From: Candidatus Thorarchaeota archaeon
GTDB taxonomy: Archaea; Asgardarchaeota; Thorarchaeia; Thorarchaeales; Thorarchaeaceae
Direction of reading: 5' to 3'
Length of the DNA stretch: 17,192 bases
NCBI GenBank assembly: GCA_016839605.1
Contig: JAEOTX010000046.1
Coordinates: 1 to 17,192, forward strand
The position numbers were made by a program, and so were the translations under genes. This document shows, in pieces, positions 1 through 17,192 of this stretch. The notes under the pieces were generated by a model that saw only the letters and a program-made list of their open reading frames with translations, was not told the DNA's origin and ran no database searches. Positions within the stretch are counted from its first letter, which is position 1. Each line of letters begins with the position of its first letter.

Positions 1-102
1 AGAGTCTGGAGAAACTGGATGGCTGGCAACGGTCTGACCTACAACCCAATGTATGGTACCTACTACTGGTTCCACCTACACAAGGTCTATCCAACAACCT
101 AG
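1..102 (+). CDS. 3' end (partial) of a probable ABC transporter peptide-binding protein (family 5, OppA/DppA-like)
   Basis: Frame 1 is open from base 1: RVWRNWMAGNGLTYNPMYGTYYWFHLHKVYPTT, then TAG at 100-102. The R-x-W...YNPM...aromatic ending resembles C-termini of archaeal family-5 binding proteins, and a terminator hairpin follows. Only 33 residues are visible. Confidence 0.55.
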   Translation, partial: RVWRNWMAGNGLTYNPMYGTYYWFHLHKVYPTT

Positions 103-132
103 ATCTCTAGTAGAATAGATGTAAGAATAAGC

Positions 133-171
133 GCAGAGGGTTGCTACCCTCTGCCATTCCTTTTATTTTTC
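133..171 (+). terminator. Hairpin plus U-tract terminator
   Basis: Perfect 9-bp stem GCAGAGGGT-TGCT-ACCCTCTGC (133-154), followed by CATTCCTTTTATTTTTT, 30 nt after the stop at 102. Confidence 0.75.
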
Positions 172-289
172 GCAAACTGTTCGGCAATCTAGATAGCAGC
201 ATATACAATGATATCAACGCAGAATCATTACCCAGAAACCAACCGTTATATGCGAGCATCAGAAAATGGGTGTTTAACTGGGAAAACAC

Positions 290-1165
290 ATGAAATACAT
301 GGACTCAATCACAACCCAAGAACTCGTCACGCATTGGTGGAGTAGGGCGTGGATTCGGAATCTGGTGTTTTTGCTGCTGCCAATAGGCATAATCGATGTG
401 GCATACACTCTTGTCGCTACTGCCACATACGGAATTGCTGTTGAATTCAATCCTATCACGCGGTTCTTTTTGAGCAACAACCTATGGCTGCCTTGGTCAA
501 TCATGAATATTGTGGGATTTGCACTCTTCTGCATGTTGGCAGGCTCATATTATCTGAAAACCAGAGACGAACCAGCAGGTCCAAACACAATGTGGCTCTC
601 CCTGATACTTGCTCTAAGAATTGGATTAGCCTCCTATAATATAACATATTTCTACATACCTTTCTTGGTCACAGTATATCCGCCACTTTGGGTAGGCCTT
701 TTCACGTTCACTATCACGTTTATTCTGATGGATAAATTGCTGACTAGAAGAGATGATATAACCCGGCGAACCATCAAGAGCTATTTCACTGTAAGACTCA
801 GTAATATTCATGATAGAAGGCTTATCAGAAACGCAAGTGCGGGAACTAAACCGGTAGAGCCTGTGAAACAGGAAATACTGAAGACTACCCTGCAGAAGAG
901 TGTATGGGCGAAGAGAGCAGCCTATCTCACTATGGCAGTTCTGATGATTGTTGCGATGGCTGGTTCAATTGAGTTTATTGGCGTATTCTCTGGCTTGATT
1001 GCTTGGAGTGATAGAGCTGTGCCATTCTATGTGTTCACTGAATTCACCAGCAGATGGTTTCTGGTCACAGTTGTGGGCATTATACTCTTCCTCTCGTTTT
1101 CAATGTACTTCATTGTTAAGGCATTTGATACTCCAGAAGAATTACCCATGGATACTGGCAAATAG
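290..1165 (+). CDS. Polytopic membrane protein with an N-terminal DUF5658-like domain
   Basis: 291-aa ORF with about 6 hydrophobic segments. The D-x3-T...G-x3-E-x-NP pattern (IIDVAYT...YGIAVEFNP) is typical of DUF5658. A basic loop separates the two membrane blocks. Confidence 0.7.
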   Translation: MKYMDSITTQELVTHWWSRAWIRNLVFLLLPIGIIDVAYTLVATATYGIAVEFNPITRFFLSNNLWLPWSIMNIVGFALFCMLAGSYYLKTRDEPAGPNTMWLSLILALRIGLASYNITYFYIPFLVTVYPPLWVGLFTFTITFILMDKLLTRRDDITRRTIKSYFTVRLSNIHDRRLIRNASAGTKPVEPVKQEILKTTLQKSVWAKRAAYLTMAVLMIVAMAGSIEFIGVFSGLIAWSDRAVPFYVFTEFTSRWFLVTVVGIILFLSFSMYFIVKAFDTPEELPMDTGK

Positions 1166-1250
1166 ACAGCAAAAAGTTAGTCTAGGCCTGTATTGCAAGC
1201 TCGGAGAAGATTGCGCGAAGAGTAAGTCAGATATAACTTCTGTTCTGCGC

Positions 1251-1429
1251 GGCTAATGGGTCTTGAAGGGCACATCGTTTGCTGGAAGTCCCAGCCTTAT
1301 ATTCAATGTTTCATCTTCAACGATGGGTTCAAACCACCCTGTCGGGGGGTGGGCCAGCCCGAATTTTATTAGCCTTCCAATTGTATCTTCTTGGAGATCG
1401 TTGCGGGGGTTCAAACCCCTGCAACACCA
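1251..1429 (+). ncRNA. Candidate structured RNA of unknown family
   Basis: Nested complementary segments: 1251-1260/1365-1374, 1268-1271/1357-1360, 1273-1279/1319-1325, hairpins at 1281-1295 and 1334-1352, and a 10-bp hairpin at 1400-1425 followed by ACCA. G-U pairs favour the + strand. It lies in a 278-nt gap between convergent genes. Confidence 0.45.
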
Positions 1430-1443
1430 TTGAGGTGACAAAA

Positions 1444-2043
1444 CTAAGCCGAGAGTTTTACCAATAGCTCTTCACAATATAGGTCGACCATCTGATTCAC
1501 AAGGTCCTGAGTCGCTTTGGATCCGTACAGTGAAGCCAGGAGTCGAAGCAGAGTCAGGTTGTGGAGCATCGACACGGTGGAATCATTCCGAGAATAGAAA
1601 TCAGTAATTCTCTCCTTAACAACTTGCTTCGCGTCATCGGTTCCCAATCGTAGAATGGCCTTTCTCCGGATCCCATCCATGCACGTTTCGAACTCTTGCG
1701 TCTGAAGCGCCGTTCTAATAGGTCCGATTAGAAAATTCGCTGCGAGCTCGTCTGTAAGATCGTGGCTCCCCAAGTCACGAACACTATCATTGAACTCGAG
1801 AATGACAGATTCCGCATCATAAGGAAGCTTTTCCTTCACAGCCTCGAGGAATGCCCGATACTCCTTTTTCCGGATGAAATGAAGATGGCGCTTGAACTCC
1901 TCTTCGAAGGCAATTACTATCGGACCAATGCCCTCTATCGAGAGGCGCTCTTTCTTGTCACGACTGAAGAGAATGTCCTCCTCTTCAGAATAAAACTGGA
2001 GATGGACCAAATACTTCACCATGAGTTCTAGCTGGTCCGACAT
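1444..2043 (-). CDS. Hypothetical soluble alpha-helical protein
   Basis: ORF 1444..2064 in the track; the ATG at 2043 has a GGTG SD-like motif upstream and is the preferred start. The sequence has an amphipathic helical pattern but no recognisable motif. Confidence 0.7.
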   Translation of the reverse strand: MSDQLELMVKYLVHLQFYSEEEDILFSRDKKERLSIEGIGPIVIAFEEEFKRHLHFIRKKEYRAFLEAVKEKLPYDAESVILEFNDSVRDLGSHDLTDELAANFLIGPIRTALQTQEFETCMDGIRRKAILRLGTDDAKQVVKERITDFYSRNDSTVSMLHNLTLLRLLASLYGSKATQDLVNQMVDLYCEELLVKLSA

Positions 2044-2103
2044 TTGCACACCGTAGATTCTCACTTCACAATTTAGTATATAGCACTAATTCGGAGGTGC
2101 ATG

Positions 2104-2139
2104 AGAAAAAGAGGAAAGGGGTAGAACCGAAGTCCTACC
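2104..2139 (-). terminator. cUUCGg hairpin plus pyrimidine tract terminating the transcarbamylase gene
   Basis: The minus strand reads GGTAGGAC-TTCG-GTTCTACC (8 bp, one G-U) then CCTTTCCTCTTTTT, 14 nt after the stop at 2154. Confidence 0.75.
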
Positions 2140-2153
2140 GTCGTTAATGTAAT

Positions 2154-3200
2154 CTATTTCATGGTCAGTGCCATAACAGCTTTCTGTCCGTGAAGTCGAT
2201 TCTCAGCTTGGTCAAATGCAATTGACTGCGGACCGTCCAGCACTGAGTTCGTAACCTCAAAGCCTCTGTCTGCTGGTAGGCAGTGCATATACATTGACTT
2301 AGGGCCAGCAATATCCATCTTGTCCTGATCGCATATCCAATGCTTGTTCTTGTCGAACACAGCCTGTGACTTCTCAAGCTCTGGTTTGTCATTGAATGGC
2401 GGGATGAACTCCTTGCATGTCCATGCCTTTGGATATACCACATGCGCACCCTCAAAGGCCTCCTCCATGTCGTACATGATTTCAAAGCTTGAATCGTTCT
2501 CTTCTGCCATCACTTTGCACTGGTCTAGGATCTTGTCATCAAGTTCCATGCCCTTTGGGTGAGCAAGAACAGTATCGCAGCCCATCTTTGTGGCCGCAAT
2601 GATAGCACTCTGTGGCACTGCGAGAGGCTTGTGCACCGACGGTGAATATGCCCAGCTCATGACGAACTTGACACCCTTATAGCCGCCAAACTTCTCCTTC
2701 ACGGTCATGACATCTGCTAAGCCTTGACATGGATGGTAGATATCGTCCTCCATATTGATAATGGGAATATGACTCCAGTGTGCGAAGTTGTTGATGACCT
2801 CATTCGCGCGACCATAGACCCAGCCCACAGGATCTCCGTAGCATCTGATGGCGATTGCATGGCCCATTCTAGCCAGAACGCGAGCTACATCTGACACGCG
2901 TTCAGTGGAATATGCTTTCTCATCGCCCTCCAATGCAGGAGCGTATATCTTACTGGGATCAAGGAAGTGAGCGTGTCCTCCCAGTTGCGTCATTCCAGCT
3001 TCGAATGAGTTGCGAGTTCTCAGACTTTGATTGTAGAAGATCATAAACAGCGTTTTCGCATCAAGGAGCTTGTGGGGTTCTCCCATGGCGAACTTCCGTT
3101 TGAGGTCTAGAGCAACATCAATGATGGTCTCCATCTCTTCTCTCGTATAGTCAAGTAGAGTGATGAAGTCTTTACCACGAAAAGTTTCGGTCTTTACCAT
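2154..3200 (-). CDS. Aspartate/ornithine carbamoyltransferase-family enzyme, knotted YgeW/ArgF'-like subtype
   Basis: Has the SLRTRxSF carbamoyl-phosphate motif, HPCQ, HCLP and QAENR. WAYSPSxxKPLAVPQ, YPKAW and YMHCLPAD resemble YgeW. It lacks the DxxxSMG motif of canonical OTCase. Confidence 0.88.
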   Translation of the reverse strand: MVKTETFRGKDFITLLDYTREEMETIIDVALDLKRKFAMGEPHKLLDAKTLFMIFYNQSLRTRNSFEAGMTQLGGHAHFLDPSKIYAPALEGDEKAYSTERVSDVARVLARMGHAIAIRCYGDPVGWVYGRANEVINNFAHWSHIPIINMEDDIYHPCQGLADVMTVKEKFGGYKGVKFVMSWAYSPSVHKPLAVPQSAIIAATKMGCDTVLAHPKGMELDDKILDQCKVMAEENDSSFEIMYDMEEAFEGAHVVYPKAWTCKEFIPPFNDKPELEKSQAVFDKNKHWICDQDKMDIAGPKSMYMHCLPADRGFEVTNSVLDGPQSIAFDQAENRLHGQKAVMALTMK

Positions 3201-3245
3201 TGTGATTCACGAGTCACATCTTTGTTAAGGACCTGTAGAAAAAGG

Positions 3246-3268
3246 TTGCCAAGAAAGACAGTTGGCAA
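3246..3268. promoter_or_regulatory. Inverted repeat TTGCCAA-N9-TTGGCAA, possible operator in a divergent promoter region
   Basis: Perfect 7-bp arms between the divergent starts at 3200 and 3360. Confidence 0.3.
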
Positions 3269-3359
3269 ATAAGTGTCTGATAGCTCCGTCCTTCTCCGAA
3301 CTCTTAAGTGCCACCCTGTCCATCATCTTTGAATACGATAAGACAAGGTTGGAGAGCGA

Positions 3360-5948
3360 ATGAGTAAAAGAAAAGTAATCAACCTAGTCCTCTCCCTCAT
3401 TGGACCAATTGCTCTGATTGTGATATTGACTATGCCAATCGGTCCATTAGCTGGAGGCCTTCAGATTGTAGCCCCCACAGGGGGAATCTTCGACGTTGGC
3501 GTTGGTGTACATCAACCTGAAACGCAGACAATCAAACTACCAGGTCTAGACGCAAACGTTGTGGTGGTCCAGGATCAGTGGGGAATTCCGCATGTCTATG
3601 GAGATACTATAGAAGATGCATTCATGGCAATGGGGTACATACACGCTAGAGATCGGTTGTTCCAGATGTACATGCAAAACTACCTGGCCGCTGGAAGGAT
3701 CAGCGAGATAGTTGGTGGATACGCGGCCAGCTCGGACAGACTGTATCGAACATTGGGATTTGAGAGGTCGGCAGAGAAGACTTTGGCCTGGTTTGAAGCG
3801 AACACGGACAATCCGGATGTTGCCTATACTCTTGATGCTATTGATGCCGAGGTCGCAGGAGTGAATACTTTCATTGACACGATGACAAGTGTGACCACAC
3901 CGATAGAATTCAAGATACTTGGTTTTGATCCACCACATTGGAGACGGTTAGACATCTTCATCTTTGCACAGTTGCAGTCATGGGGACTTGCGGGAGGTTT
4001 CGATGACCTCCGCAACCAATGGATGAGGTCAACAATGGATAATGATACTATGTTCGACGAGGTGTTCCCGTGGACGATGCCATATTCTATCCCTATTGTG
4101 TTGGAGCAATACAACCTAAGCATCACAGAATATCCCAATGCCAATGGCGGCTATCCGGCGGATCCAAACCCGTCAGCTCTGAACAGCGGGGTCATGGCGG
4201 AGGAAGCATACATACCTCAAGAGAAGCTTGAGGTCCTTATCAAAGCACTAGATGAAGTAATCAATCCAATTGGTGACATGGACTTTGTTGGCAGCAATAA
4301 TTGGGTAGTAGGCGGGGATCGGTCTGCAACAGGTGAACCTATTCTATGTAACGATCCGCATCTTGGATTCCAGACTCCTGCCCTCTGGTATGAATCACAC
4401 ATTGTAGTACCTGGGGAGTTGGATGTGACAGGAGTAGGATTTGCAGGAATGCCTGGGATAATCCTAGGTCACAATGAACACACTGCATGGGGATGGACCA
4501 ATGTCGGTGCGGATGTGCTGGACATTTTTGTCGAACAGCTCAACCCCAACAACTCAAGCGAGTACATGTACAATGGAGCTTACAGAGCATTTGAAGTCCA
4601 TGATGAATCAATCCTAACGAAAGAGGGAAACATAATCCCATTCGAAGTCTTAGAGTCTGTTCATGGACCCCTGATTGATTCAATTACGAATACCTACAAT
4701 GTTGACTCTGAGGATAGTCCGAATCTTGCTATGAGGTGGACTGGAAATGACATAATCCACAATATCATGGCAGTTGGTATGATCAATAAGATGAGTGACC
4801 TTGAGAGCTACTTTGACGCCGCCTATTGGTGGGACGTCCCTGCTCAGAACATGGTCTATGCAGACGATCAGGGCAACATTGCACTCACAGTGATGGGACG
4901 TTACCCAATAAGAGCAGGATACGATGGGCATTTTCCAGTTCAGGCTTTGAATGATTCAGTCGGGTGGGTTAGCAATGTCCCCTATGCGTATATCCCGAGA
5001 ACAGTCAATCCTTCTCAAGGATACATTCAATCCACGAATCAGCTTTCAATTGACTGGAATACCTACGGTTTTGAGCTACTCGGACCCTATGCTGATGGCT
5101 ATCGTGGACGTAGGATTGATGCATTGCTTGCAGCTGATGATAGTGTTACGATGGACGATATGAAGAGATTCCAAGCAGATGCTCTCGAAGTTAGAGCCCA
5201 AGAGATTGTGCCCTATGTCGTTGATGCCTGGAACAATTTAGGAGATGGAAATGCAACAGTCGATGAAATCATTGGATGGCTTGATGACTGGGACTATGTG
5301 ATGGATCCGGATGAAAAAGCTCCCACCATTTGGATGTTCCTTCGTAACGCAATTCACTATGAAACGTTCGACGAAATAAGGAGCATCGACTCCAGTCTGA
5401 TGTTGTCACGGACACCGGTGTTGGAGAAGTTCATCAAGGAAAACAACGTGTACTATTTCGATGATCACACCACAGCGGGAGTTGTGGAAACCCGAGATGA
5501 GATTCTTGTACGAGCCATGTACCGGGCGTTGGATGACCTTGTAGCAGATCCGGTCTTTGGAAACGATCCGGCAGATTGGGATTATGGAAACAAGCACAGG
5601 GTCTACTATGACCATCTTGCCGATCTCACATCTGTTGGTGGAATCCCTCATCGAGGGCAGCTTACGTTAAATGTCGCAGGCGGATGGAGAGTGGGTGGTG
5701 GACCTTCGTGGCGCTTGGTGGCCGACATGAGCAATATCCAGATGAGTTACGGCATCTATGCTCCAGGCCAAAGCGGCAATCCGTTCAGTCCACACTTCGA
5801 CGACCTGTTTTGGATCCAGTATTCCTACGACGAAGTCACTGAGCAGCATGGATATCATGCGATCTATTTCTACTCCACAGTAGCCGCATTCCAAGCCGCG
5901 GACACAGAAGGAACGATGATAGAAGCAGTGATTACATTTATTCCATAG
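3360..5948 (+). CDS. Penicillin acylase family protein (Ntn hydrolase, peptidase S45) with N-terminal membrane anchor
   Basis: Motifs DQWGIPHVYG, GYIHARDRLFQM, G-SNNWVV (autocleavage site and catalytic Ser), NDPHL, GWTN, QNMVYAD and PGQSGNPFSPHFDD. Basic then hydrophobic N-terminus; GGAG upstream of the start. Confidence 0.95.
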   Translation: MSKRKVINLVLSLIGPIALIVILTMPIGPLAGGLQIVAPTGGIFDVGVGVHQPETQTIKLPGLDANVVVVQDQWGIPHVYGDTIEDAFMAMGYIHARDRLFQMYMQNYLAAGRISEIVGGYAASSDRLYRTLGFERSAEKTLAWFEANTDNPDVAYTLDAIDAEVAGVNTFIDTMTSVTTPIEFKILGFDPPHWRRLDIFIFAQLQSWGLAGGFDDLRNQWMRSTMDNDTMFDEVFPWTMPYSIPIVLEQYNLSITEYPNANGGYPADPNPSALNSGVMAEEAYIPQEKLEVLIKALDEVINPIGDMDFVGSNNWVVGGDRSATGEPILCNDPHLGFQTPALWYESHIVVPGELDVTGVGFAGMPGIILGHNEHTAWGWTNVGADVLDIFVEQLNPNNSSEYMYNGAYRAFEVHDESILTKEGNIIPFEVLESVHGPLIDSITNTYNVDSEDSPNLAMRWTGNDIIHNIMAVGMINKMSDLESYFDAAYWWDVPAQNMVYADDQGNIALTVMGRYPIRAGYDGHFPVQALNDSVGWVSNVPYAYIPRTVNPSQGYIQSTNQLSIDWNTYGFELLGPYADGYRGRRIDALLAADDSVTMDDMKRFQADALEVRAQEIVPYVVDAWNNLGDGNATVDEIIGWLDDWDYVMDPDEKAPTIWMFLRNAIHYETFDEIRSIDSSLMLSRTPVLEKFIKENNVYYFDDHTTAGVVETRDEILVRAMYRALDDLVADPVFGNDPADWDYGNKHRVYYDHLADLTSVGGIPHRGQLTLNVAGGWRVGGGPSWRLVADMSNIQMSYGIYAPGQSGNPFSPHFDDLFWIQYSYDEVTEQHGYHAIYFYSTVAAFQAADTEGTMIEAVITFIP

Positions 5949-5959
5949 GAGGCATGTAG

Positions 5960-6412
5960 ATGAGAAAGATAGATGATATATTTCCCAATCTTGGGTTTGC
6001 ACCAACACTGATCATAGTTATTGTGCTAGGCATCGCTTTGCAACTAACTGGTTTTTGGATGACAATGCTACTTGCTGGAGGTTTTGGAGGTCTTTTCACC
6101 AGACGCCATCGTCACTCGTTCTTGACAGGATTCCTTGGAGTTGGTATTGCTTGGACAGGAATCTTTGCGTATCTAACGGTAACCGCTCAAGCAATGGCAG
6201 TCGCTGAATTTTTCATTGGCTTGCTTGGCCTTTCAGGGATGGGCTGGCTGGTCATCGTAATCAGTTTACTGCTGGGATCACTCCTGGGAGGTTTTGGCGG
6301 GCTGTTTGGAAGGTCTCTTGTGGAAATCATCGACGAGTTCTCTTCTGAAGCAGAACAAACCCATACTCCAGTTCAACCCACTGAGGAAATCGTAATGGAG
6401 GAGAAACAATAG
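5960..6412 (+). CDS. Small Gly-rich membrane protein (about 4 TM), paralog of 7130..7537
   Basis: GGAGG SD, starting 11 nt after the acylase stop. GxxxG-rich hydrophobic helices and an acidic tail. Confidence 0.85.
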   Translation: MRKIDDIFPNLGFAPTLIIVIVLGIALQLTGFWMTMLLAGGFGGLFTRRHRHSFLTGFLGVGIAWTGIFAYLTVTAQAMAVAEFFIGLLGLSGMGWLVIVISLLLGSLLGGFGGLFGRSLVEIIDEFSSEAEQTHTPVQPTEEIVMEEKQ

Positions 6413-6418
6413 AATAAG

Positions 6419-6441
6419 GCTGTGGCATATTCTGCCACAGC
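6419..6441. terminator. Hairpin between convergent genes
   Basis: Perfect 9-bp stem GCTGTGGCA-TATTC-TGCCACAGC, with short pyrimidine-rich tails on both strands. Confidence 0.6.
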
Positions 6442-6457
6442 ATCTCCCATTTATTGT

Positions 6458-7033
6458 TCATCGCCTTTTGTGATGATAAATACCAGTGATAAATGCAAAT
6501 GCGCATACACCTAGAACAAGCAAGCCAAGTATGATTATTGAGTTCTGGGAAGAATGACTGATAGTTCCCTCTACCTGTTTCCCGTATACTGATGAATCAT
6601 TGTCATAAACTACATACCAGGAACCAGATGACGGAATACCAACATTCCATGATAGAGCGGTCAAATCAGTCTTGTTGAGCATTGAAATCGCATTAAGGCC
6701 TTCTGACCAAGATTCGTAGTTCTGTTCATCAAAGATATACAGATCAACACCGTCACCCCAGCCTGGCCATAAGTCATACTTCTTTTGATCTCCTATGAAG
6801 TGATCACCATCAGTTGTTACGGTGAAGCTTCCTTCAAGAGCATCGCCCTTCTCACATTCGAAAGAATATACCTGAGAGGTGAGGGGACTCAGCCAGAAAC
6901 TATGAGTTGCCAGAGGTTCATGAATGGAAGCATGTTGTTTCGTTGCCACTGTGGAAATTGGCAATGCTGCAATGAGTACCAGTAAGGTGAGAGCAACAGA
7001 CATCTTCAATTGACGGCCTTTGTTGGTCAACAT
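6458..7033 (-). CDS. Type I membrane protein with a GOLD (emp24/gp25L/p24)-like beta-sandwich
   Basis: Signal peptide, then a beta-strand pattern including KGDALEGSFTV, VDLYIFD and GSWYVVYDNDSS (compare p24 G-x-Y-x-x-C-F-D-N-x-x-S), then a C-terminal TM helix and the tail YHHKRR. Confidence 0.65.
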   Translation of the reverse strand: MLTNKGRQLKMSVALTLLVLIAALPISTVATKQHASIHEPLATHSFWLSPLTSQVYSFECEKGDALEGSFTVTTDGDHFIGDQKKYDLWPGWGDGVDLYIFDEQNYESWSEGLNAISMLNKTDLTALSWNVGIPSSGSWYVVYDNDSSVYGKQVEGTISHSSQNSIIILGLLVLGVCAFAFITGIYHHKRR

Positions 7034-7129
7034 ACTACATTCAGTATTGCAATATGCACCTTATGAATCAACTTGATTCTCACGAATGGCATGCAACACC
7101 ATTTTAGGGTAAACAGTCTATGAATAGGC

Positions 7130-7537
7130 ATGGCCCAACGACTGACCCAGAAGGCCTTGGATACTGGGATATATCATGGATACTTCTTGACGCTCCTAAT
7201 TGCTCTGCCACTTCAGTTGATAGGGCATTGGATTCTGATGATTCTTGCTGGAATCGCTGGGGGGCTAACTGTGAAGAGGTACAGGCATGCTCTCATCGCT
7301 GGATTTCTGGGGGTGGGAACTGCATGGTCAATCATCTTCGTTTTTCTAAATGTATTTGCTCAGGCCTATGTCATCGGAGAGTTCTTTGCATCACTTATCG
7401 GACTACCTGGATTCGAACGATGGATAGTTTCCCTTTCAATCCTCATAGGCGGCACTCTTGGTGCAAGCGGATCAATTGTGGGCAGGGCGATTGCTGAATT
7501 GGTTCAAGAGATTCGATCTTCCACTGACGCAGACTAA
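7130..7537 (+). CDS. Small Gly-rich membrane protein (about 4 TM), paralog of 5960..6412
   Basis: Aligns without gaps to 5960..6412: LQLIGHWILMILAGIAGGLTVKRYRHALIAGFLGVGTAW versus LQLTGFWMTMLLAGGFGGLFTRRHRHSFLTGFLGVGIAW. Confidence 0.85.
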   Translation: MAQRLTQKALDTGIYHGYFLTLLIALPLQLIGHWILMILAGIAGGLTVKRYRHALIAGFLGVGTAWSIIFVFLNVFAQAYVIGEFFASLIGLPGFERWIVSLSILIGGTLGASGSIVGRAIAELVQEIRSSTDAD

Positions 7538-7560
7538 ACAATAGTTCATATATGACAGCT

Positions 7561-7569
7561 CTTATATTG
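7561..7569 (+). promoter_or_regulatory. Possible archaeal TATA box for fprA
   Basis: CTTATATTG lies about 23-31 nt upstream of the ATG at 7592. Confidence 0.3.
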
Positions 7570-7591
7570 AAGAGAAGAGGGAGCTTGTACA

Positions 7592-8800
7592 ATGCATTTG
7601 GAGGAAACTGAAACCATGCATCGCAAGATTACTGATGGAGTCTACTATGTCGGTGTCGATGACCACCACACGGCACTCTTTGAGAATCTCTGGCCACTCC
7701 CATTTGGGGTGTCCTACAACTCATATCTGGTTGTTGATGATAAGATCGCGGTAATTGATACTGTGAAGAACATCTTCACTCAGGAATGGCTTGATAACAT
7801 TCGTGAGATAGTGGACCCAGAGAAGATAGACTACATTGTCTTGAATCACATGGAACCAGACCACACCGGAGCCCTACCGAAAATCGCAGAACTCGCAAAG
7901 AACGCAACTATAGTATTCACACAAAAAGCAGCTGGGATGGAGGAATCCTTTTACAATGTAGGCCTTAAGACCAAAGTTGTAGAAGACCTAGAGGAGCTCT
8001 CTCTCGGGAAAAAGACACTGAAGTTCGTACACGTTCAGTTCGTCCATTGGCCAGAAACCATGGCCACGTATCTGGCTGAGGATGAGGTGCTATTCTCATG
8101 TGATGCATTCGGCTCATTCGGTGCACTCAATGGGAAGCACTTCGATGACGAGATTGACATGCGCATGATTGAATCTGAGAGCAAAAGATACCTCTCCACG
8201 ATAATCACGAGTTACTTCAAGTTCGTTCAACGGGCTATTGAGAAGGTCAAGGGTCTCGGAGTAGGAATCAAGTTCATAGCACCCAGTCATGGACCGATCT
8301 ACAGAAAAGACCCCACATGGGTCATCGACCACTTCGACAAGTGGAGTAGTCCTGAGCTTGACAAGCATGTCACGATAATTTTCGGCTCGATGTATGGCTA
8401 TAACCTGCGCCTTGCTCATACGCTCAAGAAAGAGCTAGTAGAGCTAGGAGTCGAAGTCAAGATACACAACATCTCCTATAGCACCATGGACAATGTCATC
8501 ACGGATGCTGTGAGGGCAGGAGTGATTGTTCTAGGCACTCCAACCTACGACGCGTTCCCGTTCCCCAAGATCTGGGCGTTCGTCAATGAGATGGAAGGGA
8601 AACGGTTCCAGAAGAGACCCATAGCTCTCTTTGGCACCCATGGATGGGGCGGTGGAGGTGTCCGTAAACTGAAGAAGTATCTTGAGGAAAATAAGTTCGA
8701 GATATTGGAGCCAAATGTCAGATGCAGAGCAACACCTACTGAGGAAGAGCGACAGGCAATCAAGACATTGGCTAAGAACATCGCAGAGATTGTGAAGTAG
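7592..8800 (+). CDS. fprA: Flavodiiron protein (A-type flavoprotein; O2/NO reductase)
   Basis: Metallo-beta-lactamase-like diiron motifs YNSYL, NHMEPDH, HWPETM, CDAFG and PSHG, followed by a flavodoxin domain (SMYG, GTPT, FGTHGWGG). An alternative start at 7616 has GGAGG upstream. Confidence 0.95.
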   Translation: MHLEETETMHRKITDGVYYVGVDDHHTALFENLWPLPFGVSYNSYLVVDDKIAVIDTVKNIFTQEWLDNIREIVDPEKIDYIVLNHMEPDHTGALPKIAELAKNATIVFTQKAAGMEESFYNVGLKTKVVEDLEELSLGKKTLKFVHVQFVHWPETMATYLAEDEVLFSCDAFGSFGALNGKHFDDEIDMRMIESESKRYLSTIITSYFKFVQRAIEKVKGLGVGIKFIAPSHGPIYRKDPTWVIDHFDKWSSPELDKHVTIIFGSMYGYNLRLAHTLKKELVELGVEVKIHNISYSTMDNVITDAVRAGVIVLGTPTYDAFPFPKIWAFVNEMEGKRFQKRPIALFGTHGWGGGGVRKLKKYLEENKFEILEPNVRCRATPTEEERQAIKTLAKNIAEIVK

Positions 8801-8956
8801 TTCTCTAATCCATTTCAAGCTGCAACTTCATCATTGTGCTTGTAGCTAGTTGGTTCCTAAAGTAACCTTTTTAGTCAGCACCATATTTCCTGAAACAGTT
8901 GTTCGACAAGTGCAGTGATTTATGCTGCACGACAAAGAATGACGGAGGTAAGAGAG

Positions 8957-9544
8957 ATGAAACTCAAGGGAACCAAAACCGAGAAGAATCTACTGACGTC
9001 TTTTGCTGGTGAGTCACAGGCGCGAAACAGATATACTATGGCTGCCTCGACCGCTAAGAAAGAGGGATACCAGCATATTTCTGCAGTCTTCCTGGAGACT
9101 GCAGGGCACGAACTGGAGCATGCGAAGAGGTTCTTCAAGTACCTCAAGCAGGGCAACGCAACCGAGGCCATCAAGGTAGAATGGGATTTTCCAACTTCGG
9201 GGGCCTATGAAAGTACTGAGGAGATACTCAGGCATGCTGCGGCGGGAGAGAAATACGAGTATAGCGAGATGTATCCGAACTTTGCTGATATTGCCGAAGA
9301 AGAGGGCTTCAAGGAGATCGCTCACCAGTGGAGAATGATTGCAAAGGCTGAAACCTGGCATCATGAGCGCTATCTCGCTCTTGCGGAGCAAATCAAAGAT
9401 GGGTCGATCCTCAAGAAGAAAGATAAAGTCCGTTGGCGATGCGATAACTGCGGCTACATTCATGAAGGAACCTCTCCGCCCGATAAGTGTCCTGCCTGTC
9501 AACACGACAAGGGCTATTTCATGCTCGACTTTGCTGAATACTAG
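8957..9544 (+). CDS. rbr: Rubrerythrin
   Basis: LKGTKTEKNLLTSFAGESQARNRY, ExxH motifs (ELEH, ETWH) and a C-terminal rubredoxin-like CDNC...CPAC. GGAGGT SD at 8944-8949 supports ATG 8957 over 8915. Confidence 0.96.
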   Translation: MKLKGTKTEKNLLTSFAGESQARNRYTMAASTAKKEGYQHISAVFLETAGHELEHAKRFFKYLKQGNATEAIKVEWDFPTSGAYESTEEILRHAAAGEKYEYSEMYPNFADIAEEEGFKEIAHQWRMIAKAETWHHERYLALAEQIKDGSILKKKDKVRWRCDNCGYIHEGTSPPDKCPACQHDKGYFMLDFAEY

Positions 9545-9557
9545 TTTCCCAATTCGA

Positions 9558-9597
9558 CACCTTGGTCTAGATTTGGGCCAAGGTGCTTTCAATTTTT
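9558..9597 (+). terminator. Hairpin plus U-tract terminator after rbr
   Basis: CACCTTGGTCTA-GATT-TGGGCCAAGGTG (12 bp, two G-U) followed by CTTTCAATTTTT. Confidence 0.75.
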
Positions 9598-9937
9598 CAA
9601 CATGCTCAAGATAATAGAATGAGAAGATGAGCGGACAGCAGAGCTGTCATTGTTGGGGGTTTGGGGTTGATTGCTGTTAGGGGAGAGAAAAATTATCATT
9701 TCCTGCTAGCCCGCTCTGGATTATGCAGGTAATCCTCTCTTTAGTAATGGTGTATCACACGGTCAATATTCCGAATTTCTCTGAAAGACTAACTGTTTTA
9801 GTATTTGAAGTCATATTGATTTCGTTCTAGTATAGGAATGCGCATTGACTAAACTTTGACAGAGAGGCGTTATGTATTTGCCATGAAACTGTAGAAGGAA
9901 CTTCTGCCATGGAATTCAGAGTCTCATTTTGATTATT

Positions 9938-10027
9938 ATGACAATACACCACGACAATCCGTTCACACCCCCGCCAGAGCCCTGGAATACTGATAACCCA
10001 TTCACACCTCCTCCTGAGCCCTGGTAA
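9938..10027 (+). CDS. 29-aa small protein MTIHHDNPFTPPPEPWNTDNPFTPPPEPW with a duplicated 11-aa unit
   Basis: ATG at 9938 and TAA at 10025-10027. The two 33-nt units differ at 6 positions, all synonymous third-codon positions. The second unit ends exactly at the stop, and a terminator-like hairpin follows. Confidence 0.7.
   Translation: MTIHHDNPFTPPPEPWNTDNPFTPPPEPW
9953..10024 (+). repeat. Two-copy direct repeat, 33-nt unit with 39-nt period
   Basis: gacaatccgttcacacccccgccagagccctgg (9953-9985) versus gataacccattcacacctcctcctgagccctgg (9992-10024); 27 of 33 positions identical. Confidence 0.9.
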
Positions 10028-10039
10028 AAATAATCCATA

Positions 10040-10077
10040 TTGAGACATCCCATGGGTGTCTCAAACACCTTTTCTTC
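10040..10077 (+). terminator. Hairpin (near-perfect palindrome) plus pyrimidine tract after the small ORF
   Basis: TTGAGACATCC-CAT-GGGTGTCTCAA (11 bp, one G-U) followed by ACACCTTTTCTTC. Confidence 0.6.
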
Positions 10078-10184
10078 GCATCCCTGTTGGCAATTGCTTT
10101 CATTGGTGATTTCTAATCCAAATTCGTTGGATTGGCAAAGCATATACGAGGCTTAAGGCCAGAATTCTTCCGGAGAACAATTCC

Positions 10185-12188
10185 GTGGATGATTTCACAA
10201 AGCTGCTTGTATCCGTAGTAGATAATGGAATAGCTAGTGAGTTTCATTTGCGCTATGATGAGAAGGGACCAGTCCTCTCCAATCCAGATGATGTTTTTGT
10301 GAAGGAAACCATAGGTATTGAGAGATTGTTAGTTCATGATGAGGTTGTCATTGATAGTAGTGGAATAAGGAAAAGGAAATCGTTTGCATCTCCTGTTGAA
10401 ATATGCTTCCAACCGCTGCTTTCAGCTGAAAGAGGTTACATGTTGGATAGAAGCAGACCTGACCACCTTTACCCACCATCTAGCGCGGGGTGGTACACCA
10501 GAATAGAAAGGAGAGGAAGAAAATCTAGCATCTTCTTGCATTCTGCTGCTGATGAAAAAAAATACTGGCTTTCAATCGTAGATAATCAGACTGGAGAATT
10601 CCTTGAAGCGCATACAATATTGCCTTTCGAGAAAGGGGTCTTAGAGATAGCGGATGAAACAGAAGAGTATAGTGAGATGTTTCTAGCACTTTCAGAAGTT
10701 AGCGAGTCAGCAGCAATCGAATGGATGGATCGGATATTAGATGGTCCTCCTCCAACATGGAGTGAATTGGCGAAGATTACTGGCGACGTGTATATCCCTA
10801 ATCTAAAAATAGGTAACAGAATGCGGGATACTGTTGATCAACTTGTCCCGAAGAATTACGACTCACAGACTAGACTGCAAGTAATGGCATTTCTGGGAGC
10901 TATTGTCAAGGGTCATAATCCTGGTGAGGATCCTGTAGACTATTTCGAGAGACTCCAATCAACACAGGTTCTTCGGGCTCTTCTAATGGGTCATCTCTCT
11001 TGCATCCTCAGTGGCGGAGAGCCACCATCGTATGTGAGGATAATACAGGATGGCGCTCGTCAGCGCCTAGGGGTGCCAACAAGGACTGTTACCGATTCTC
11101 TTGACTCAGACACGTGGTATCATACATACTATAGAATCTTGGATAGATTTCCTCTTACCTATGATACAGTCCTGGAATATTCTGCTAGGATGAACAACTC
11201 GAATCGCATTGTGCTTGGATTGCCAGTTACTAAATCGCAGGCAGCTAGGTCACGAAAGAATTGGGTTAATAGACTCGATCTCATGGGCATTGGAGTTATG
11301 CTTCGGGCATTGCTACGACCACCTGCAATAGGATTGAAAAGAATTGTCTACATGGGATTTGCCCACAAATGGCCGACCATCCACATGAAATGGTCATCTA
11401 ATATTGGCAGTGAAGGATATAGAGAACCAAGCATTCAGATATTGGAAATGCCGCCAGATAGCGTTGAGGCTTCCCTTAGAGCTAGACCTAATCTATTGAC
11501 TGTAGACTGGACGGGAGCCTCAGTAAATGAGCAACTATACGATGCAGGCTCAAAAACGTGGAGAGTACCCATTAGTAGGATTGCTAGTTCGATGCAAGGC
11601 AAAAGGACTTTGAGAAGATTGGGAAATGAGTTTGGAGCCTGGAGGGGATCAAGGACAAGAAAACCAACGCATCTTTGGGCAAAGGCCCTTGATGCTACGG
11701 CCAATTTGAAATTTCTGGCTAATCTGGAGCAGGACAAGTATGTCGAATACATGGGCTTGACTCGCAGCGAATTATTACATGCCCTTCAAGAAATGAAAGA
11801 AATAGGAATCATCACAGTTGCATATGTCCCGAATGTATTGGATTTAATGACTTTAGCTGTCATAGCGCAAGGAAAGGCCGCCAATGTGTGTTCTCTAAGC
11901 CGCGCCTTTTTGAAATACTCACCAACAGCAACAGTACATTTAGCAAAAGATGGGGAATGGTTACTAGCCCTTACTCGACAGCCCATATCAACGGCACATC
12001 ATCTTATGGCTATTCTACCCGAGGAAGCAGCTAGACATGGTATTACCTTAAGATGCAATAGAACCACCTCCTTCCGCAGCTACCAAGGTAGATTCTATAC
12101 AAGAATGCTACGTGAAGATGGTACTTGGGAAACAGACATATCCCCGATGCTGAGCCAGATACGGGTTCCTTTTCAAGATGAAAACTGA
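10185..12188 (+). CDS. Large hypothetical protein with a probable C-terminal winged HTH plus Lrp/AsnC-like ligand-binding module
   Basis: 667-aa ORF with a GTG start (start uncertain). YVEYMGLTRSELLHALQEMKEIGII fits a wHTH recognition-helix pattern and is followed by a beta-alpha-beta-beta-alpha-beta-like segment. The first ~480 aa are unrecognised. Confidence 0.7.
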   Translation: MDDFTKLLVSVVDNGIASEFHLRYDEKGPVLSNPDDVFVKETIGIERLLVHDEVVIDSSGIRKRKSFASPVEICFQPLLSAERGYMLDRSRPDHLYPPSSAGWYTRIERRGRKSSIFLHSAADEKKYWLSIVDNQTGEFLEAHTILPFEKGVLEIADETEEYSEMFLALSEVSESAAIEWMDRILDGPPPTWSELAKITGDVYIPNLKIGNRMRDTVDQLVPKNYDSQTRLQVMAFLGAIVKGHNPGEDPVDYFERLQSTQVLRALLMGHLSCILSGGEPPSYVRIIQDGARQRLGVPTRTVTDSLDSDTWYHTYYRILDRFPLTYDTVLEYSARMNNSNRIVLGLPVTKSQAARSRKNWVNRLDLMGIGVMLRALLRPPAIGLKRIVYMGFAHKWPTIHMKWSSNIGSEGYREPSIQILEMPPDSVEASLRARPNLLTVDWTGASVNEQLYDAGSKTWRVPISRIASSMQGKRTLRRLGNEFGAWRGSRTRKPTHLWAKALDATANLKFLANLEQDKYVEYMGLTRSELLHALQEMKEIGIITVAYVPNVLDLMTLAVIAQGKAANVCSLSRAFLKYSPTATVHLAKDGEWLLALTRQPISTAHHLMAILPEEAARHGITLRCNRTTSFRSYQGRFYTRMLREDGTWETDISPMLSQIRVPFQDEN

Positions 12189-12196
12189 GAATTTGA

Positions 12197-15100
12197 CTAG
12201 CTCTCCCATTCTCCGGGCAATTTGCTAACAATGACTCCAACCCGTTTCCAGATAAGAACAGCTACAGCAGCGATGATTCCTAGTCCTCCTACCAAAGGAA
12301 CTGTTCCTGCATCCATAGGCATTGATGACGTGCCGGAAATCGTTTCAAATGTCAGTATGGAAGACATTTGGTCCACCACTGGCAAATTGCTGATTGTTAT
12401 ATTGGCACGATACTCGCCTTGCAGTTCGACTGGAAACTCGATTGTTTCGTAGCCAAAATGATGAGCAGCCAAAATCCAAGTATCCACAACTTGGTCCAAG
12501 GGGTCTAAAAGCAAAACCTCAAGTCCCCCGTTCCAGCCTGCGGTCACACCAAGAACGTTGTAGCTCACGTTGAGCGTGCAATTCAAGCCTACTTGAACTG
12601 GATTCAAGGGTGTCAAATCAATTAGCAGCACTGGTGACACTATCAAAGGAATCGAACTGGTGGCTGGTGCATAGCTTGCTGTCCCATAAAATACAACCTC
12701 CACTGTGAGGTTGCCAGCTAAAATGCCGTCTAATGCAATCTCAGCTCCACCACGCGTTCCAGTTAAAGCAGTCTGCTGTAGCATCAAAGCATTATCGCTC
12801 CAGACTCGAATTGTCAGAGGTGCATCTTTAATCTTGAATACGCCAGAAGATACCGTAATGGAGAGTGGAATGGATTGTCCGAACTCCATTGAAACTGGAT
12901 GCTCAATCTGGATAGCAATTGGATATCGAACCAATACTTCAAATTCGACACTAGCACTGAACCAAAAGGTTTCACCCTCGAAGACAAGAATCAGAGAATA
13001 ATTCCCTGCTAGTGATGGAACCCAAGAAATGGAAATCGCTTCCGATGAAATGGAATACGCGGTCCTAGTTGTGAGAGGTGATCCATGAATCTCCCTACCA
13101 TCTGGCGTGTAAAGACTCACAAACACAGTAGCTCCGCCAGCAATATCCCCAAGGCTGTCCACAAGCGTGAAAGCGAACTCATGATGATCATCGATTATTC
13201 CTGAGAAACTCTCATCCAGAACCTTGAAGCTAGTGTATGCCATAACATCGAACTGAACTGCAGTGGTACTCCCAACCCTTAGACTGCTGGCTAGGATAGT
13301 GAGATTCAGGGTGTATTGTCCGACCTCTAGGCCTTCCAGTGATATGCCTATCTCAGTAGATGTAAGGAGAAGTCGGCTAGTCAGGTCTACTGTACCAGCA
13401 GGCCCATGCAATTCAAATGAAGTGTTAAGCTCATCCAAAGCGATGATAGAACCGACCTCATCAATGAATGACGCTGTCAAATACGAATCTGAGGAGCGCT
13501 CGATTGATGAGCTCACACTAACGGTGATGTTGGTAGTGCCATACACCCATATCCTCAGAGCTGCGTTAGACGCGTGATAATGCGCCGTTCCAGCAAATTC
13601 CAGGAGAATGGTGTAGTTGCCCATTCTATCCAGAGTGATGTTCAGCATGATAGGGTCTTGCCCGATTTGGACCACGCTATCAGTCAGTGTGAGACCCAGC
13701 AAGTCGTGATAGGTGGAATAGTCAATCGTGAATCCCTCCAGAGGTGTCCCACCTGAGTCCATCAAAAGCAAAGAGAGTAAAACGGGAGTTATGCCCGCGA
13801 CAACATCGCCTGTTGAAATGACCGACGCTTGTATCTCAGTCCCGTATCTCACACTCACATCGACTGCGTCTGAAGCAGCAAGATACACTCCTAGGCCATC
13901 AAAGACAGCAGTCACTGTCCAGAGACCCTCATCATCTAATTGGACACTCCAGTAGGAATACCCTGTGCTATTTGTCACCACGACAGTGGGCCCGAGCATT
14001 GAACCACCAGGGCCATCTACTATAATCGTGATATTCCGGTTCGCCATCGGAGACCCTTGATAGTCCACGAGGAGGGCTGTGATGTCCAGCATATCTCCAA
14101 CCTCAATCTCTGTTTCAGATACGCCAATGTCTACGTTGCTTTGTGAATATACGGTGTGGTAGGTGTCATCAGTGAAGCCATGAACTGATGTAGCACCTGA
14201 ACAGGAGAGATGAACAGAGTAAAGACCACTCATCGCTGGCACAAAGGTTAGAACTGCCACTCCAGCGCTTGTCGTCACTGTTATCGAGTTAGACCAAACA
14301 CCCAGCTTCACAGGGTCTCCAAGAGGATTGTCAAGTGAAACAACAATGTCCAGGTTCTCAACGGGACTGCCAAGTTGGTCAATGACCAAGACCGTTATGT
14401 TGACATTCTGTCCTGCTATGGGCGGGTCCGGGACTAGTGAAGTTGCTATTGCGCACGTCGTCACGACGTTGAGTTGCTCCTGAGTGTCCCCTCCTATTAG
14501 AAATTGATCTGTCGTAGGTGATGCCCTTATTGTAAGAATCCCGTGAGCATCGTCGGCGAAGTAGAACACCTCGGCTACTCCGCTTCCATTGGTCACTATG
14601 TTGGAAGTCCAAACAGGCACGAGATCAAGCCCTAATACTTCGAAATGTATCAGCACTCCGCTCTGAGTCCCCGCAGTGAGAAGAGTATATCGGAGAGCTG
14701 CGGTGGTGAACAGATCGATCGATGATGGATCAAGTATCAGCTCGGCACTGACAATCTCTAGGACTGATATGGTCGACCCAGTAGAGTTAGCAATGTAGTA
14801 AGGATCTCCTGCATGAAGGAGGGTCATTGTAGCTATCCCTCTATCAACGGGATCCCAGTGGATTGTTTCCATGCCATCGATTGACTCGACCTGAGTCTCA
14901 AACACGATTATGTTATTCTGCTCAATAGAAAGGATGAGCATCCTTCCGACTATATGCTGCTGGTTTGCATCAGTAATACCCACATAAATCTGAAGGGTTT
15001 CTCCAAGCATGCAAGATGGACTATGATTCAGCAGCATGGATGGAATCATGTAAACTCTCTGTATTGCCGACGATATGGCGGATGAGTTGAGGCCATCGCC

Positions 15101-17191: not shown

Positions 17192-17192
17192 G

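Follow-up and report, generated by a model that had tools for sequence, protein, structure and literature searches.

A conserved, lineage-restricted non-coding element with the substitution pattern of a folded RNA at a membrane-protein locus of Thorarchaeota

The window analysed here is a 17,192-nt stretch of a Candidatus Thorarchaeota genome (GenBank assembly GCA_016839605.1, contig JAEOTX010000046.1, positions 1–17,192). Near its start, a gene for a 291-aa membrane protein (290–1165, + strand) and a convergent gene for a 206-aa protein (1444–2064, − strand) face each other across a gap of 278 nt. Neither gene product has a Pfam or NCBIfam match. The locus order, membrane protein, 206-aa protein, carbamoyltransferase-like gene and penicillin amidase, is conserved. 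An earlier note, made from the letters of the window, had called the convergent gap far longer than a terminator requires and had placed in it a 124-nt multibranch RNA (1251–1374) with a kink-turn-like internal loop. The gap is indeed long. In four members of the same genus that lack the element described below (G004, G007, G008 and G012; G-numbers denote genomes, G000 being that of the window, and L-numbers metagenome contigs), the convergent genes are only 21–131 nt apart and no similar sequence lies between them.

Alignment of this gap with its homologues delimited a conserved block at 1211–1429 on the + strand (219 nt), with TTGCG at its 5′ edge and ACCA at its 3′ edge. The 124 bases originally flagged are thus the middle portion of a larger element, 219 nt long in the window (short form) and about 300 nt long in relatives, and this 219–300-nt element replaces 1251–1374 as the conserved unit. 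Conservation ceases immediately 3′ of ACCA, giving a very sharp 3′ edge, and the spacers on either side of the element are unalignable between relatives. Since the block runs to ACCA, it includes the hairpin-plus-ACCA that the earlier reading had listed as a separate finding. Relative to its neighbours, conservation begins about 36–60 nt past the stop codon of the membrane-protein gene, and 14 nt past the stop of the 206-aa gene when read on the − strand.

BLAST comparison across 87 genomes of the order detected the element in 6/17 genomes of one Thorarchaeota genus (this one and 5/16 others) and in none of the 70 genomes from other genera. BLAST, nhmmer and covariance-model searches together yielded copies in those five other genomes and in six metagenome contigs, where one copy came from a pattern match and more came from contigs encoding homologues of the 206-aa protein. 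The covariance model (R1) retrieved nothing new from 86 genomes of the family. Exact patterns scanned against genome, metagenome and viral collections returned no copies beyond those of the six genomes already identified and one partial contig from a metagenome, with no match to viral contigs in two such scans, and a one-mismatch pattern applied to 400 genomes of the phylum gave extra matches that all fell within coding sequence (G006, G143). Its own genome contains a single copy of the element. It always sits between the membrane-protein gene and the convergent 206-aa gene, and every copy with enough flanking sequence follows the membrane-protein gene in the same orientation. The orthologues in G004, G007, G008 and G012 do without it, so the element is dispensable for the membrane-protein gene. 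Compared with the 206-aa protein of the window, the versions in element-bearing genomes are about 70% or more identical and those in genus members without the element about 50% identical; in several homologues of 66–70% identity that have other neighbours, the element is absent.

Homologues of the 206-aa protein form a family found across Thorarchaeota (158 matches, no Pfam entry), whose gene usually adjoins the carbamoyltransferase-like gene. As homologues are 198–200 aa long, translation of the protein in the window probably begins at Met 8. An AlphaFold model of the protein was confident (pLDDT 91.7), and searching the PDB with it gave nothing informative (Foldseek E ≥ 0.96; VIA-align Z ≤ 6.6, generic helical rows); no RNA-binding family or fold could be recognised by comparison with Pfam, NCBIfam and the PDB. 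What lies downstream of the 206-aa gene varies among Thorarchaeota (a membrane protein, a PmbA/TldD pair, a NUDIX hydrolase or a 186-aa ORF; L049–L054, L059–L063), which marks this flank as a synteny breakpoint. The membrane protein diverges rapidly and at a different pace from the genes around it, with 45–85% identity within the genus as against 92–96% for the adjacent carbamoyltransferase. Its versions in G008 and G012, genomes without the element, are nearer to that of G000 than are those of G011 and G015, which carry it, a pattern that suggests recombination within the locus. Single in-frame stops occur in the 206-aa genes of G005 (TAG; G005:C10:41914–42522) and G007 (TGA; G007:C178:1696–2286) and in the membrane-protein gene of G015 (TAG; G015:C27:36816–37712), and could represent broken genes, sequencing errors or recoding.

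The element, as outlined by the BLAST, nhmmer and covariance-model matches and by alignment A2, is modular (all coordinates on the + strand). At its 5′ end lies a hairpin module (1213–1250) closed by GCGC/GCGC, in which the loop letters AAGAG and CAGAUA are kept. The closing pairs (A2 columns 3–6 with 37–40) form in 7/7 copies, a C-G to U-G change included, and the whole module is swapped for unrelated sequence in L055 and L047. It is followed by the 5′ strand of the closing helix of the earlier fold (1251–1260, partner at 1365–1374), which is partially supported, and by a small GCA/UGC hairpin that leads into a highly conserved tract, UGGAAGUCCCAGCCUUAUAUUCAA (1270–1306), with nearly invariant letters. 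After window position 1306, long forms carry an extra 82-nt segment that is conserved in its own right. This segment is present in four genomes of the genus and four metagenome copies and absent from the window copy, G001 and L046, with the break between ATTCAAT and ATTCATT repeats. Further 3′ come the 5′ strand of a moderately supported long-range helix (1313–1320), where AUCUUCAA pairs with UUGGAGAU at 1391–1398, and a helix UGGGUU/AGCCCG (1324–1361) around the hairpin CCACCCU-GUCGG-GGGGUGG (1334–1352). The most conserved tract, UUAUUAGCCUUCCAA(A)UUGGAUCUUCUUGGAGAU (1365–1398), holds the 3′ strands of both the closing and the long-range helices. It is mostly invariant in 10–12 copies and is kept even in L061, a reduced copy of about 100 nt that retains this 3′ tract and the terminal hairpin. 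The latter is a 10-bp stem, GUUGCGGGGG-loop6-CCCCUGCAAC, followed by ACCA (1400–1429). As judged from these alignments, two modules are optional, the 5′ hairpin and the 82-nt central arm, and the window genome has lost the second by deletion.

Sequence identity across the element was compared with a neutral yardstick, namely the four-fold degenerate sites of the neighbouring carbamoyltransferase gene, which is 95% identical. The element of G000 was 73–79% identical to the four distant copies of the genus (G005, G002, G015 and G011) and 78.5% identical to those of G005 and G015, whereas four-fold sites were only 43% identical in the latter two comparisons (43/99 and 42/98). Identity this far above that of four-fold sites indicates strong purifying selection. 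This selection does not act on a protein. In most copies, stops interrupt most of the frames, the length of the 82-nt indel is not divisible by three, and six-frame translations of the element gave no protein-level match by tblastn, either to adjacent genes in relatives or to other parts of the genome; for these reasons the element is non-coding. With no shared open frame and no tblastn similarity, a small protein or a pseudogene was ruled out. Public gene calls place hypothetical proteins of 64 aa (L046:2125–2319) and 52 aa (L055:2114–2272) inside the element, and these are most likely spurious, no open frame being shared between the copies. The block 1211–1429 (+) is therefore one representative of a non-coding element that is single copy, restricted to one lineage and maintained by purifying selection.

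The substitution pattern of this block fits a folded + strand RNA. Counting the cells of those helices that persist across copies gave 383 Watson-Crick, 48 G-U and 4 A-C. Because a G-U cell reads as a mismatch on the opposite strand, the 48:4 ratio points to an RNA read from the + strand. Folding energy, which the earlier note had wanted set against shuffles, divided according to the segment considered. For the 124 nt (1251–1374) it was just marginally better than expected by chance (MFE z −1.97, with 7/200 shuffles as good; z −1.88 on the − strand), and for the whole block 1211–1429 it was clear (z −4.49 on the + strand, with 0/200 shuffles as good; z −3.90 on the − strand).

We scored the previously drawn 124-nt fold on 10 homologous copies (alignment A2). 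All the letters quoted for it were found in place: GGCUAAUGGG (1251–1260) with UUUAUUAGCC (1365–1374), the loop UCUUGAA/GAAU, GGGC (1268–1271) with GCCC (1357–1360), CAUCGUU (1273–1279) with AACGAUG (1319–1325), GCUGG-AAGUC-CCAGC (1281–1295) and CCACCCU-GUCGG-GGGGUGG (1334–1352). As a fold it mostly failed to carry over to relatives, in which 81.9% of cells were paired and three of the five helices were lost. The sole variable pair of GGGC/GCCC fails in 5/9 copies, and this helix competes with a better one; CAUCGUU/AACGAUG is 74.6% paired with disruptive changes only; and the variation in GCUGG/CCAGC consists of disruptions only. The closing helix (74.4% of cells paired) gave a mixed picture, gaining from a compensatory A-U to U-A change in L046 and from G-U to G-C or A-U changes, and losing from a C-A mismatch in 7/9 copies and broken end pairs. 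The CCACCCU/GGGGUGG hairpin stood firm, at 94.8–95.7% paired (95.7% in the 10 copies) with two compensatory pairs. The proposed kink-turn, and with it binding by L7Ae, found no backing in the relatives. Its loop letters rank with the most variable in the element, the corresponding columns (A2 51–57 and 232–235) differing in almost every relative, and even in the window copy UGAA opposite GAAU gives G-A, A-A and A-G, unlike the canonical tandem.

An alternative fold, made up of the GCGC/GCGC 5′ hairpin, the GCA/UGC hairpin, the long-range helix AUCUCCAA/UUGGAGAU, the UGGGUU/AGCCCG helix around the CCACCCU/GGGGUGG hairpin and the 10-bp terminal stem, had 95.4% of cells paired. In long forms it adds an arm built from UGAAGG/CCUUCA and CAAUGAAU/AUUCAUUG. 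The outer helix UGGGUU/AGCCCG keeps its four central pairs in every copy through G-C/G-U and U-G/C-G changes. In 12 copies, 92.5% of cells of the long-range helix were paired, with three wobble-preserving changes, one C-G to U-A double change and, in L072, two C-A mismatches. The 3′ domain as a whole had 94.1% of cells paired in 12 copies and three pairs changed on both sides. Its covariation score (0.168) was above 498/500 shuffles and all slid controls; related sequences can beat the shuffle control without any structure. Helix support is real but thin, with few copies available and most paired columns never varying. A further pairing between two conserved tracts, UGGAAG/CUUCCA, was inspected by hand in A2 and rejected, as it showed seven disruptive changes and zero compensation. 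On the comparative evidence, the CCACCCU/GGGGUGG hairpin, the surrounding GGGU/GCCC helix and the terminal hairpin are supported, and the long-range AUCUCCAA/UUGGAGAU helix less firmly so. The best supported parts of the predicted fold are thus the terminal hairpin and the 3′ domain, the latter comprising the long-range helix, which encloses a two-helix arm, and then the highly conserved, mostly unpaired tract. If the closing and long-range helices both exist, they cross and would form a pseudoknot.

The terminal stem was 100% paired in 10 copies and in 99% of cells in 12 copies, and six of its ten pairs have changed, always keeping the pairing (G-U/A-U/G-C, C-G/U-G and G-C/G-U). ACCA follows in 11/12 copies and GCCA in L061. 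The 6-nt loop is free to vary, being UUCAAA only in the window and UCUGAA, UCGAAA, UCUUAU, UCCUAU and others elsewhere. ARAGORN predicted a genome-encoded CCA in 25/27 tRNA genes of the window's genome, so that the element has the same kind of 3′ end as the tRNA genes of its host. These tRNA predictions (contigs C7–C207) include many with introns and a tRNA-SeC gene (C181:4103–4193). Like the acceptor/T-arm minihelix used as a substrate by RNase P and the CCA-adding enzyme, the element has a helix, one unpaired discriminator base and CCA; unlike the minihelix, whose canonical form is a 12-bp acceptor/T stack with a 7-nt T-loop (UUCRANY), it has a stem of 10 bp and a variable loop of 6 nt. With a stem of this length and no T-loop, recognition by tRNA enzymes is only a guess. 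tRNA-like 3′ elements act as end-processing signals in MALAT1/mascRNA of mammals and in the tRNA-like structures at the 3′ ends of plant-virus RNAs. The resemblance is that of a long RNA ending in an acceptor-like helix, a discriminator base and CCA. The element differs in consisting, at this end, of only a 10-bp helix with a free 6-nt loop, lacking a T-loop, a D or anticodon arm and a pseudoknotted acceptor, and neither ARAGORN nor the Rfam tRNA model reported anything.

No known RNA family accounted for the element, as the earlier note had suspected. No match reached the gathering cut-off of Rfam 15 across the whole window, and permissive filters on the short and long forms gave chance-level matches only, the long form scoring at best 18.6 and 14.7 bits where the cut-offs are 88 and 35. 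ARAGORN found no tRNA in the element. It is neither RNase P RNA nor SRP RNA, the genome's copies of which lie elsewhere (C46, 158.5 bits; C101, 91.4 bits, just under cut-off), as they do in relatives. A tRNA-gene remnant left as an integration scar was also rejected, the positions giving no T arm and no tRNA of the genome having the acceptor stem GUUGCGG. For box C/D RNAs, defined by a C box (RUGAUGA) and a D box (CUGA) near the ends of a 50–70-nt RNA, no conserved box pair was found on the + strand, and on the − strand a C-like box occurred in long forms only, with no D box. For box H/ACA RNAs, which require a hairpin with a pseudouridylation pocket and ACA three bases from the 3′ end, the element offers ACA-CCA at its end, yet its terminal hairpin is an uninterrupted 10-bp stem without an internal loop. 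Archaeal kink-turn/L7Ae RNAs of both guide classes thus share with it a single-motif size, an ACA three bases before the 3′ end and, in the window copy, GA-containing internal loops, but the element has no conserved tandem G-A, no + strand C/D boxes and no pseudouridylation pocket, and its Rfam C/D matches are far below cut-offs and on the other strand. Nor does it resemble an intrinsic-type terminator, in which a T-run comes immediately after a G+C-rich hairpin; here the conserved ACCA comes next, and the variable sequence beyond it has no T-run. A search of the literature retrieved nothing on an RNA of this kind.

Signals for transcription differed from those of the genome's stable RNAs. A TTTAT/TTTAA-type box lies about 30 nt upstream of its tRNA, RNase P RNA and SRP RNA genes; the element has no TATA-like box at the matching position. 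Between the membrane-protein stop and the element there is no T-run, whereas one is found immediately after the 206-aa stop on the − strand, before the element is reached. The missing TATA-like box and T-run favour co-transcription with the membrane-protein gene, and the element is probably transcribed as the 3′ part of this mRNA. The earlier suggestion of a new structured RNA or a 3′-UTR element stands, given the absence of an Rfam match, conservation above neutral, + strand helices and the position downstream of the membrane-protein gene. We consider it fairly probable that the element is a new lineage-restricted structured RNA forming the 3′ part of the membrane-protein mRNA, with an acceptor-like end and unpaired tracts that bind a putative partner. 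In such a mechanism, the RNA would be made jointly with the upstream gene, and the acceptor-like helix with its template-encoded ACCA would fix and protect the 3′ end, either through handling akin to that of tRNA ends or simply as a block to 3′ exonucleases. The conserved unpaired tracts would be the working surface for a protein or RNA partner, and the outcome might be altered stability or use of the membrane-protein mRNA, or action as a released small RNA. The 3′-UTR-derived small RNAs of bacteria and archaea offer a parallel, as they too lie directly downstream of a same-strand coding gene with no recognisable promoter of their own; the element differs in being far larger and more structured, and in that no target complementarity was found. 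A search for trans targets in its own genome gave nothing above chance, the best complementarity being 16 nt (E 0.13).

Other explanations share part of this evidence. An independent small-RNA gene, with its own promoter and producing a stable trans-acting RNA of 220–300 nt, perhaps partnered by the 206-aa protein, would suit the onset of conservation well past the membrane-protein stop, the sharp 3′ end, the existence of the membrane-protein gene without the element and the way the element tracks the roughly 70%-identity type of the 206-aa gene rather than the roughly 50% type. We regard it as unlikely, given the missing TATA-like box where the stable-RNA genes of this genome carry one, the 66–70% homologues of the 206-aa protein that lack the element, the absence of a recognisable RNA-binding family or fold in that protein and the lack of a convincing complementary target. 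It is quite unlikely that the element, as an RNA specific to Thorarchaeota, is the first archaeal tRNA-like 3′ module; in that case RNase P, the CCA-adding enzyme or a nuclease that trims 3′ ends would recognise the acceptor-like helix with its encoded ACCA, and these tRNA enzymes would mature or mark the membrane-protein transcript.

A feature acting as DNA, or a decaying relic such as a mobile-element remnant or a recombination site at the synteny breakpoint, has a slim chance of being correct. The narrow distribution at always one locus, the large indels (the 82-nt deletion between repeats, the replaced 5′ module and the 100-nt remnant in L061) and the varying neighbour beside the 206-aa gene (membrane protein, PmbA/TldD, NUDIX) would all fit one. 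Such a relic is hard to reconcile with identity far above that of neutral sites, or with helix substitutions that preserve RNA pairing on one strand only; moreover, the element is single copy, no integrase or transposase lies nearby, no viral contig matches it and its terminal helix matches no tRNA acceptor stem in the genome. It is highly improbable that the − strand is the functional one, whether as the 3′ UTR belonging to the 206-aa gene or as a guide RNA resembling the C/D-box class. The element does start just 14 nt past the stop of that gene, the − strand MFE is low too (z −3.90), the two C-A mismatches of L072 would become G-U, and the long-form insert contains AUGAUGA alongside sub-threshold matches to archaeal C/D models (sR55, 14.7 bits against 35). 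Against these, the 48 G-U cells would turn into C-A mismatches, no conserved D box (CUGA) exists, three copies, among them that of the window, lack the insert in which the C-box-like motif occurs, and the T-run directly after the stop of the 206-aa gene lies ahead of the element.

The reading as a structured 3′ part of the membrane-protein mRNA bears on a little-explored area, the literature we searched holding almost nothing on Asgard non-coding RNAs beyond rRNA, tRNA, RNase P and SRP RNA. The narrow range of the element, one sub-group of one genus, limits its general importance. It is nevertheless a clear case of a selected, folded RNA that lies outside all databases and whose ends are defined in the DNA. 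A tRNA-like module, if real, would give Asgard archaea an equivalent of the MALAT1/mascRNA kind of end formation in eukaryotes. Were the element processed by tRNA enzymes, a 3′-end route otherwise known from eukaryotic long non-coding RNAs and viruses would exist in the closest prokaryotic relatives of eukaryotes.
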